Shown here: piece after piece, positions 10,824 through 36,257 of the stretch
How positions within the stretch are numbered: position 1 is the first letter of the stretch
How the letters are laid out: every line of letters starts with the position of its first letter
Assembly (NCBI GenBank): GCA_027859095.1
Contig: JAQIBN010000085.1
Span: 1 to 56,128, forward strand
Length of the DNA: 56,128 nt
Reading direction: 5' to 3'
Source of the DNA: Spirochaetia bacterium
GTDB lineage: Bacteria; Spirochaetota; Spirochaetia; B11-G9
Translations under genes and position numbers: made by a program
Notes under the pieces: model-generated
Database searches by the model: none
Told to the model about the DNA's origin: nothing
What the model saw: the letters and a program-made list of their open reading frames with translations, nothing else

Positions 10824-10854
10824 TGTAGAGACGTTGCAGTGCAACGTCTCTACA
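10824..10854. repeat. REP-like palindrome (GTAG type)
   Basis: TGTAGAGACGTTGCA-G-TGCAACGTCTCTACA, perfect 15-bp arms, intergenic. Confidence 0.7.
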
Positions 10855-14410: not shown

Positions 14411-14610
14411 TTGAAGTAAATGATACACCCTATGACTGGTTTACAAATATGAATATGTACAATTTGCTAAAAATAATGGGCTATACCCTAAAAAACCCAT
14501 CTGTTTTGATAAATATAAATAATGAAGTAATACCAAAGTCAAAATGGGATACCTATATAATTCCTGATAATGCTGAAATAACTGTTGTGAACCTTCTAAG
14601 AGGTGGGTGA
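14407..14610 (+). CDS. thiS: Ubiquitin-like sulfur carrier protein (ThiS/MoaD family)
   Basis: 67 aa, 'MIEVN...INNEVI...VVNLLRGG' ending in a free GG; ATGA overlap with thiF. Confidence 0.8.
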   Translation: MIEVNDTPYDWFTNMNMYNLLKIMGYTLKNPSVLININNEVIPKSKWDTYIIPDNAEITVVNLLRGG

Positions 14611-14614
14611 AACC

Positions 14615-14685
14615 GTAGGGGGGAGAACGGCCTGGTCGCAACTTTGTTGCTGCTCGGCTATGCAACCTTAGCCATTCGCCCCTAC
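14615..14685 (+). repeat. REP-like GTAGGGG...CCCCTAC palindrome with a CTGGTC-hairpin element in its loop
   Basis: Imperfect arms 14615-14631 / 14671-14685; insert CTGGTC-GCAAC-TTT-GTTGC-TGCTCGGCTATGCAACC matches the element at 35758-35834. Confidence 0.65.
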
Positions 14686-14706
14686 AGTTTTTAATTCTCA
14701 ATTATA

Positions 14707-35555: not shown

Positions 35556-35757
35556 GAGCTCCTCTAACTAATATACCTATCCCAAAAGAAAATAATGAGA
35601 CCCCAAGACTAATAGAAATTATTTCTAAAAATCTTAAATCGATCCAACTTTAAATATATATTATATTCAGCTATTTCACGTTTTAAGGATGAAAGCATTA
35701 TATTTAATAATTTTGTTTCCATAAACGGGTCCTTTATTGGTATTATATACTATAAGG

Positions 35758-35834
35758 CTGGTCGCCAACAAGTTGACCTGGTCGGGACTTTGTCCCCTGG
35801 TCATAGACTTCGTCTATTGCTCGGGTATGCAACC
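35758..35834 (+). repeat. Array of three CTGGTC-hairpin units with a conserved 3' tail (unclassified element)
   Basis: CTGGTC at 35758, 35778 and 35797, each followed by a different hairpin; tail TGCTCGGGTATGCAACC matches 14651-14667 at 16/17 nt. Confidence 0.75.
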
Positions 35835-35846
35835 ACAGGAGATATT

Positions 35847-36257
35847 ATGAAAGCTCATTCTGAAATACCTAAAACCCTAAAAGCCTGGTTTGTGGTACAT
35901 TTTATTGCAGACACATTATTTGCTATCCCACTTTTTGTTGCCCCGGTTTTTCTATTAAAACTACTCAATTGGCAGAGTGTAGATCCGCTTATGGCCAGAA
36001 TGGTAGCAGCTGCCCTATTTGGCATAGGGATAGAATCCTTATTATGCATCAAACTGGGCAGGGATGCCTTTATAGCCATGTTGAATTTAAAGATAATCTG
36101 GTCCTTTGCTGCAATAGCAGGTTTTATAATTGGACTTAGTCAGGGATTATTTGGCTATACGCTTGTAGGGGTAGCACTACTTATAATTTTTACTGCATTT
36201 AATATTCTATGGATTTACTGGCGACTTTATTTTAAAAAGCTGGATAGGATTACTTAA
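35847..36257 (+). CDS. Small integral membrane protein of unknown function (about 4 TM)
   Basis: ATG 35847 after AGGAG; four hydrophobic segments. Confidence 0.65.
   Translation: MKAHSEIPKTLKAWFVVHFIADTLFAIPLFVAPVFLLKLLNWQSVDPLMARMVAAALFGIGIESLLCIKLGRDAFIAMLNLKIIWSFAAIAGFIIGLSQGLFGYTLVGVALLIIFTAFNILWIYWRLYFKKLDRIT

Follow-up and report, generated by a model that had tools for sequence, protein, structure and literature searches.

The three-head array and its surroundings

The window is the whole 56,128-nucleotide stretch analysed here, contig JAQIBN010000085.1 of a Spirochaetia bacterium whose genome (G000) is assembled in 314 contigs totalling 4.2 Mb, with a G+C content of 36%. Positions 35758–35834 of its + strand hold three successive units, each a CTGGTC head followed by a hairpin, and one tail, as the original prediction had described. 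Unit 1 (35758–35777) consists of the head and GCCAACAAGTTGAC, whose hairpin GCCAAC-AA-GTTGAC contains one C.A mismatch, and has lost its own tail. Unit 2 (35778–35796) is nested, is likewise without its tail, and joins the head to GGGACTTTGTCCC (hairpin GGGAC-TTT-GTCCC). Unit 3 (35797–35834) is the sole complete unit of the array: its CTGGTC is followed by ATAGACTTCGTCTAT (ATAGAC-TTC-GTCTAT), TGCTCG, the internal triplet GGT, AT and GCAACC (nhmmer, E = 8.2e-08), and GGT pairs with the CC of the CCC that stands just before. All three units are on the + strand.

The tail, TGCTCGGGTATGCAACC (35818–35834, + strand), lies directly after the three head-hairpins and ends, as had been claimed, 2 nt before a Shine-Dalgarno (SD) sequence, AC being followed by AGGAG at 35837–35841 (+ strand). 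The ATG start codon at 35847–35849 opens a 136-aa ORF on the same strand (35847–36257), which is membrane-type and matched no Pfam family. The gene upstream of the array is divergent and encodes a VanY-type carboxypeptidase; a Crp-family regulator gene follows, on the opposite strand. Immediately before the outermost unit stands AAGG (35754–35757, + strand), which includes the target-type triplet AGG and also precedes the element in the genomes G002, G004 and G006. The TATACT box of the original prediction (35746–35751, + strand) is −10-like and part of a block, TATTATATA, that is conserved across the orthologous loci of the five species read, but it was not called by a consensus promoter scan and had no −35 partner.

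Fold energy did not single out the locus. The predicted RNA fold of 35755–35852 was −26.4 kcal/mol, with z = −0.08 relative to shuffles, which is no thermodynamic signal, and support was therefore taken from comparison within the family instead. The 17-base tail occurred twice in the window at three or fewer mismatches, compared with 0.03 occurrences expected, and none of 100 shuffles reached two.

The second occurrence belongs to a single complete unit at 14632–14667 (+ strand; hairpin GCAAC-TTT-GTTGC; nhmmer, E = 2.1e-09), whose internal triplet GCT pairs with the flank GGC. A distant one-unit copy with the same tail had been predicted; the copy is present, but its tail differs from that of the array at one base, GCT for GGT. 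The AC-N2/3-GT apex held for these four hairpins but not for the family at large. The unit occupies the centre of a host 'double-foot' REP palindrome, GTAGGGG...CCCCTAC (14615–14685, + strand), flanked there by GGC and GCC, downstream of a ThiS-family gene. The fold of 14608–14692 had z = −2.64, owing to the host REP. A separate canonical 'double-foot' REP family, made of perfect GTAG...CTAC palindromes of ~28 bases, was also found in G000 (49 copies), and another copy of it lies in the window at 10825–10853.

Family size and anatomy of the unit

The element is not local to the array, which proved to be one locus of a large repeat family. A strict pattern gave 24 exact matches in G000, compared with none for the reversed control. 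A looser count gave 172 head-plus-hairpin units in 149 loci, 18 of the units being followed by another head, so that the further copies with covarying stems expected from a genome-wide search do exist; nhmmer returned 165 matches at E ≤ 0.01. One head with one tail was found at 88 loci, two of each at 16 and three of each at 5, and 35758–35834 is the only locus in the genome with three heads and one tail. In a search of G000 for an autonomous parent, 77 'solo heads' proved to be mostly chance occurrences of CTGGTC adjoining AT-rich palindromes.

The unit reads NNN-CTGGTC-(variable hairpin)-TGCTCG-N'N'N'-AT-GCANCC, in which N'N'N' pairs with the flanking NNN. It is 41–43 bases long with a hairpin of 5–7 bp, and a copy of its 5' flanking triplet stands 1–2 bases after GCANCC. 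We aligned 84 distinct units from several phyla to define its helices. The variable hairpin is P2, and P1 joins the three bases before CTGGTC to the three bases after TGCTCG. Between them, CTGGTC lies opposite TGCTCG, with which it could form C-G, G.U, G-C and U.G pairs plus two flanking pyrimidine mismatches; this segment never varies and is therefore uninformative on pairing, either way. The element as a whole is strand-asymmetric, with constant flanks and freely covarying stems.

Over 13 pairs in the 84 units, 95.6% of cells were paired, compared with 72.2% in shuffles. The covariation score was 0.598, against 0.147 in shuffled alignments (0 of 500 shuffles reached 0.598) and 0.05–0.10 for slid partners, which bears out the earlier observation that the stems differ yet pair; the P2 share of these figures is partly biased because units were selected for at least four outer P2 pairs, P1 being unselected. 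The two inner P1 (flank–guide) pairs were formed in 84/84 and 81/84 units, and four pair types were seen for either. The 3' flank (1–2 bases after GCANCC) can pair with the internal triplet too, at 69.8% compared with 54.4%. Among 127 complete units in G000, all three 5' pairs were present in 67 and all three 3' pairs in 61. This third helix, between the flank triplet and the internal triplet, is the most informative feature of the unit and had been missed by the original prediction. The commonest internal triplets were CCT, GCT and CCC.

Eighteen unpaired core bases were invariant in at least 255 of 258 profile matches, across phyla, a figure that is an upper view because the profile was built from pattern-selected units. 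Mismatches in the stems of 112 distinct hairpins showed no wobble preference (8 G.T and 15 A.C).

Some units carry an optional second hairpin, module 2 (GAGTCGTACC...stem-loop...GGAACGATCTCA), inserted between AT and GCAACC. It is a variable stem-loop with a purine-rich internal loop, of a kind common in RNA motifs, which would suit an RNA role. Module 2 had 23 exact matches in G000, was found in all six congeners and gave one match each in G009 and G030. At times it stands alone, and at times it hosts a nested unit (for example on G000 contigs C1, C50, C70, C210, C274 and C307).

The element is absent from Rfam, in line with the failure to recognise it in the original prediction. Rfam 15 gave no match at gathering score in the window and nothing overlapping the units at E ≤ 10, E ≤ 5 or E ≤ 0.01 in this locus and the composite loci, and neither module 2 nor the unit had a match at any threshold tried. 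The gathering-score matches in other loci were only introns, 5S rRNA, tRNA and the L10 leader. A search of the literature outside supplements, by sequence strings and keywords, found no published description of the element; the strings led only to an unrelated paper.

Insertion sites, polymorphism and spread

The site orthologous to 35758–35834 varies between genomes. The element is absent from G005, where the −10-like block is followed by TAAGGAG and ATG. G002 has one unit, whose hairpin is related to that of unit 1, and G004 has two heads and two tails, retaining the heads of unit 2 (gggactacgtccc) and unit 3. G006 has at least one head, at a contig end, and G000 has three heads and one tail. 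Comparison of G000 with 711 kb of G005 gave 16 usable sites, of which 10 were empty in G005, 2 filled, 1 occupied by module 2 only, 1 by a head-only remnant and 2 ambiguous (one a paralogue, one a poor match). At both filled sites the position agrees, but the hairpin differs at one and module 2 has been added at the other. G003, G005 and G006 supplied more empty/filled pairs. In the clean pairs, the filled site has an insertion of 42 bases and a direct repeat of 3 bases, to which the internal triplet is complementary.

The cleanest insertion boundaries are those within G000 itself, where a canonical double-foot REP palindrome is empty in 17 copies and interrupted in 6 by a 42-base insertion right after AGG, the six sharing one subfamily and perhaps stemming from a single insertion. 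These insertions end in a second AGG and have CCT or CCA as their internal triplet. Taken across species and copies, site comparison argues for transposition as the likely source of the units. A separate observation concerns G005 contig C17 (L162), where AAAGG and AGGGAG enclose nothing but CTGGTC, ahead of the orthologue of a gene on G000 contig C260; G000 has a degenerate unit plus module 2 at the same position. The bare hexamer was left either by a deletion or, as a footprint, by excision.

Since orthologous sites vary and clean empty/filled pairs exist, the three-head array is best read as a nested insertion whose outer tails were lost. The junction between hairpin and tail of resident units is itself a site of insertion, the triplet of the inner unit matching the end of the outer hairpin. 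The simplest history would be serial nested insertions at this junction and then deletion between tails that are direct repeats of one another, leaving heads 1–3 with the innermost tail. The earlier suggestion of growth by adding hairpin cassettes therefore holds in this form, with whole units nesting between hairpin and TGCTCG tail and tails lost afterwards. The array is neither spanned nor skipped by the contigs of three DNA runs, which stop within the repeat.

Units are concentrated just before genes. A same-strand ORF start lay within 45 bases of 85 of the 149 G000 loci, compared with 15 in the control (opposite) orientation, and 59 loci were 10–18 bases before the start. Empty sites have the AGG within AAGGAG as their target; where a site is filled, the 3' AGG of the unit restores the SD. 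Units also occur at the 5' end of tRNA genes. On G000 contig C255 and at L228 of G373, the initial G residues of a tRNA gene mark the precise end of the tandem units, and the 3' triplet GGG of the unit thus doubles as tRNA positions 1–3. A repeat of ~229 bases at C1:1,552,000–1,556,000 of G373 (L226) contains a unit in every period, with GGTGGCGGGACTCCGCTCC-like sequence after each; this may be a repeat of degenerate tRNA-like or other type.

Long open frames hold at most 11 of the 149 G000 loci. A 42-base copy lies in frame inside a group II intron RT gene (L043), and units stand in domain IV of three different group II introns; the introns that carry units are on G000 contig C231 (L254), at L043 and in G373 (L255, L256). 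Two in-frame copies in RT ORFs are at the GGKR and YVRGW motifs. Two Paenibacillus species (L099 and L103) have a unit at the same position in a large ORF, read ...GLVGDSVTCSPMHP..., and the L099 ORF is open through the unit for 1256 aa. The frame LV....CS.MHP is common to the Paenibacillus copies and the in-frame copy in the L043 RT. Away from start codons, 8 units were sense and 14 antisense in a rough tally of stop-to-stop frames, and the core was intact in 70/93 units at SD-adjacent loci compared with 57/69 elsewhere. Together with the lack of a wobble preference, these two results argue against sense RNA as the main object of selection.

The pattern was found in all six other species of the genus (8–66 matches each), in none of four genomes from two other genera of the family, and in 1 of 30 other genomes sampled from the class. 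Among sampled Spirochaetota, 13 of 401 genomes (11 of 153 genera) had the pattern, and the control gave no match. With each GTDB species represented by one genome, a wider scan gave at least 114 loci, with ~104 chance matches expected across the whole collection. Among the 114 loci listed, 69 had at least five contiguous stem pairs (median G+C 44%), and the other 45 were mostly high-G+C singles without a hairpin. The hairpin-bearing loci listed include Bacillota MAGs, Paenibacillus, Cohnella, Ruminiclostridium, Oscillospiraceae, Fibrobacterales, other spirochaetes and a Vallitaleaceae MAG with four tandem units; copy numbers in five of the genomes were 1, 5, 7, 17 and 2.

Approximately 11 of 25 stretches of viral contigs carried hairpin-bearing units, several right before an SD. 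On two of these contigs (L238:4919–4963 and L244:3155–3198), a large serine recombinase gene has a unit between its SD and a −10-like block; a small HTH gene precedes the recombinase gene, and a second ORF of ~525 aa follows it. The recombinases are 54% identical and the unit is kept at the matching position. Two compensatory stem pairs and one covarying P1 flank/guide pair distinguish the copies, whose retention suggests selection on the structure in situ. A large serine recombinase was rejected as the partner of the element, as the copy at L247 precedes a capsid-family gene and that at L233 follows a tail-chaperone gene. A blastn search with a three-unit array against PLSDB plasmids and INPHARED phages returned nothing at E ≤ 1e-3, to which repeat filtering may contribute.

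In the complete genome G373, the ten copies examined of an eleven-copy subfamily switch strand at mid-chromosome. We rejected replication bias as the reason, because those copies ride in copies of one group II intron; the ten lie at a fixed distance upstream of the RT-gene copies of that intron. This seemingly young subfamily is thus explained by intron hitch-hiking. Phages and introns are thus vehicles for the element.

Interpretation and comparison with known systems

On balance, we consider it probable that the unit is a non-autonomous mobile hairpin repeat that chooses its targets by base pairing, and that 35758–35834 is a nested composite of such units. A unit would insert next to a 3-base site matching its internal triplet, often the AGG of an SD. 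Further units would then insert at the hairpin/TGCTCG junction of residents, and recombination between repeated tails would remove tails to give 'three heads, one tail'. Because the internal triplet is complementary to both flanks, a unit would come to sit where the preceding DNA can close its basal helix, with the target repeated at its 3' end. With CCT, GCT and CCC as the commonest triplets, the preferred targets would be AGG or GGG, as in SD sequences, tRNA 5' ends and REP stems. Since the 3' end of the unit re-creates AGG, the ribosome-binding site would survive and copies would be tolerated, hence the sense-strand pile-up 12–15 bases before start codons. By analogy with IS200/IS605 elements, target choice may proceed through base pairing of a single-stranded intermediate, here with one hairpin and one guide, and the insertions are presumably neutral for the host gene. 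The 18 invariant unpaired bases count against this reading, as they resemble a catalytic or protein-bound RNA more than a drifting REP.

The excess of same-strand starts over the control could instead reflect a functional RNA module of mRNA leaders, in which a 5'-terminal or intercistronic hairpin and the AUGCAACC tail stand just before the SD. Such a module would stabilise the mRNA or tune initiation, the internal triplet switching its pairing from the 5' flank to the AGG of the SD or back, and would have spread by recombination because it is useful. The placement between a conserved −10-like block and an SD, both here and in L238/L244, speaks for it, as do the compensatory changes between those two contigs, a triplet able to pair with either flank and the extreme conservation of the unpaired core. 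However, the orthologous site in G005 is empty, as are 10 of the 16 other sites compared, and copies lie antisense, in ORFs, REP stems and introns and adjoining tRNAs. The core is no better kept beside an SD than elsewhere, the stems show no G.U preference and a 3-bp helix would be a weak SD trap, and we regard a leader module as unlikely. A cis-regulatory RNA dedicated to the 136-aa ORF, as the original prediction had also offered, is unlikely because the site is empty in one congener and because the element stands before unrelated genes and in ORFs, REPs and introns.

HUH/RAYT-like processing, the other proposal made from the locus alone, would make the unit a REP-type element moved in trans by a Y1 (RAYT or IS200-like) transposase acting on a single-stranded hairpin. 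The hairpin does have conserved flanking bases, and the complementarity of guide and cleavage site matches the IS608 principle (PMC3201880, PMC5934647); in-frame REP insertions are likewise described in PMC6006769. G000 has five Y1_Tnp matches, two of them encoding full-length proteins. However, all five lack a unit within 1.5 kb (loci of ~3 kb), the GT[AG]G foot is absent, and units are mostly tandem and direct rather than inverted pairs. The separate 'double-foot' GTAG family is a better candidate partner than the hairpin unit for the RAYT-like Y1 genes of G000. Y1_Tnp was present in 11/11 genomes of the family, including 4/4 without the element, and gave no match in two well-assembled carriers, G373 (one contig, 99% complete, 35 units) and G088 (97% complete). 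Y1 mobilisation is therefore improbable. Still harder to credit is the reading of the core as a previously undescribed small RNA with a catalytic or templating role, be it a self-cleaving, leader-trimming ribozyme or a UG27-like RT template, from which mobility would follow. Its ~18 invariant unpaired bases around freely varying helices are typical of small ribozymes, its basal helix uses upstream flank sequence, tandem arrays exist, and copies occur on phage contigs and in group II introns. Against it stand the lack of any Rfam match, permissive thresholds included, the lack of a wobble preference and the random orientation of units that are not at an SD. Group II maturase or RT matches were found in 3/7 genomes of the genus, and RVT_1 was absent from 2/5 carriers tested (G002 and G004); UG27 units, moreover, are ~135–167 nt long and adjoin their own RT, neither of which is true here.

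No mobilising enzyme was found for the element, and neither G000 nor the viral and Bacillota loci contained the head...ORF...tail arrangement of an autonomous parent. More speculatively, and with considerable doubt, the mobile hairpin repeat may be a minimal programmable element of a so far undescribed kind, with ~41 bases, one hairpin and a single 3-base guide for the target as well as for its own 3' end. Its movement would depend on an enzyme other than a RAYT or intron RT, or on catalysis by its own ultraconserved core; it would travel between phyla on phages and introns, and its commonest guides would give it natural landing pads in ribosome-binding sites. If guide-directed reading is true, this is the smallest element known with its own target-recognition code, and its CCT, GCT, CCC, GGT, GCA and GCC subfamilies at matching sites are a natural retargeting experiment. 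It would also show how a selfish repeat colonises ribosome-binding sites, tRNA starts, REPs and introns yet leaves them working. A conserved partner is suggested by the near-invariance of the core from Spirochaetota, Bacillota and Fibrobacterales to phage contigs. In practice, with roughly 170 units in each genome of this genus, assemblies break at the repeat and copies can be misread as regulatory RNAs; a covariance model would let them be masked or annotated.

Among known systems, a sigma-54 promoter, an attC site, a boxA-type antiterminator, a tRNA-like RNase P substrate and a K-turn were considered and did not fit. A CRISPR array, already discounted in the original prediction, alternates identical repeats with unique spacers of similar length and differs in that the constant part of the unit is only 6 bases, the variable part is a self-complementary hairpin and the copies are dispersed over 149 loci. 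Unlike classical MITEs, the unit has ends (CTGGTC... and ...GCAACC) that are not inverted repeats, although a 3-base direct repeat is present. Pneumococcal BOX elements are modular small repeats with a variable number of internal modules, found in intergenic regions near gene starts. The unit is similarly modular and near gene starts, but has no sequence relation to BOX, and its modularity comes from nested insertion of whole units and from the optional module 2.

The element behaves like REP/BIME, BOX, REP2/IR-A and RPE repeats. PMC3184786 describes Neisseria REP2 and Borrelia IR-A/IR-B as lacking terminal inverted repeats, having internal stem-loops and bringing a ribosome-binding site upstream of genes; they are 120–150 bp long, carry a promoter and an ATG, and are lineage-specific, whereas the unit is ~41 bases, restores only the AGG of the SD and crosses phyla. 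The same paper describes Rickettsia RPE as palindromic repeats of 105–146 bp lying in frame in protein genes, in Rickettsia only. The unit also has in-frame copies in ORFs, but these are a minority (at most 11 of 149 loci). The UG27 RT ncRNA array, as described in the preprint 10.64898/2026.09.22.753630, has units of ~135–167 nt beside an RT and two accessory genes, whereas the units here are 41–43 bases and dispersed, with RVT_1 absent in G002 and G004.

REP, BIME and REPIN elements, which have RAYT (TnpA-REP) transposases, are described in PMC6006769 as short, high-copy, hairpin-forming interspersed repeats that are clustered, at times in frame and patchy in distribution. A REP has a GT[AG]G tetranucleotide at its 5' foot (PMC6006769). 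REP copies flank a tnpA-REP gene, and each family is specific to its own tnpA. The unit is also short, high-copy, hairpin-forming, clustered and patchy, and like a REP has conserved bases at the foot of a variable stem. However, its foot is CTGGTC in 255–258 of 258 profile matches rather than GT[AG]G, it has no REPtron and does not track Y1 genes, and its arrays are direct rather than inverted pairs. It also has an internal triplet complementary to both flanks, and a core nearly identical across phyla. IS608 reads its cleavage and target sites with a short internal guide beside a subterminal hairpin, and a change of guide can retarget it (PMC3201880, PMC5934647). In a comparable way, the internal triplet of the unit matches both the target triplet and the 3' triplet of the unit, and it may serve in cleavage. 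Unlike IS200/IS605 elements, the unit has one hairpin and one guide rather than separate left and right ends, is ~41 bases long without a gene, and has neither a detected autonomous tnpA parent nor a consistent Y1 gene. By this analogy, the logic of IS608 would fit the anatomy of the unit best, with one guide serving both junctions.
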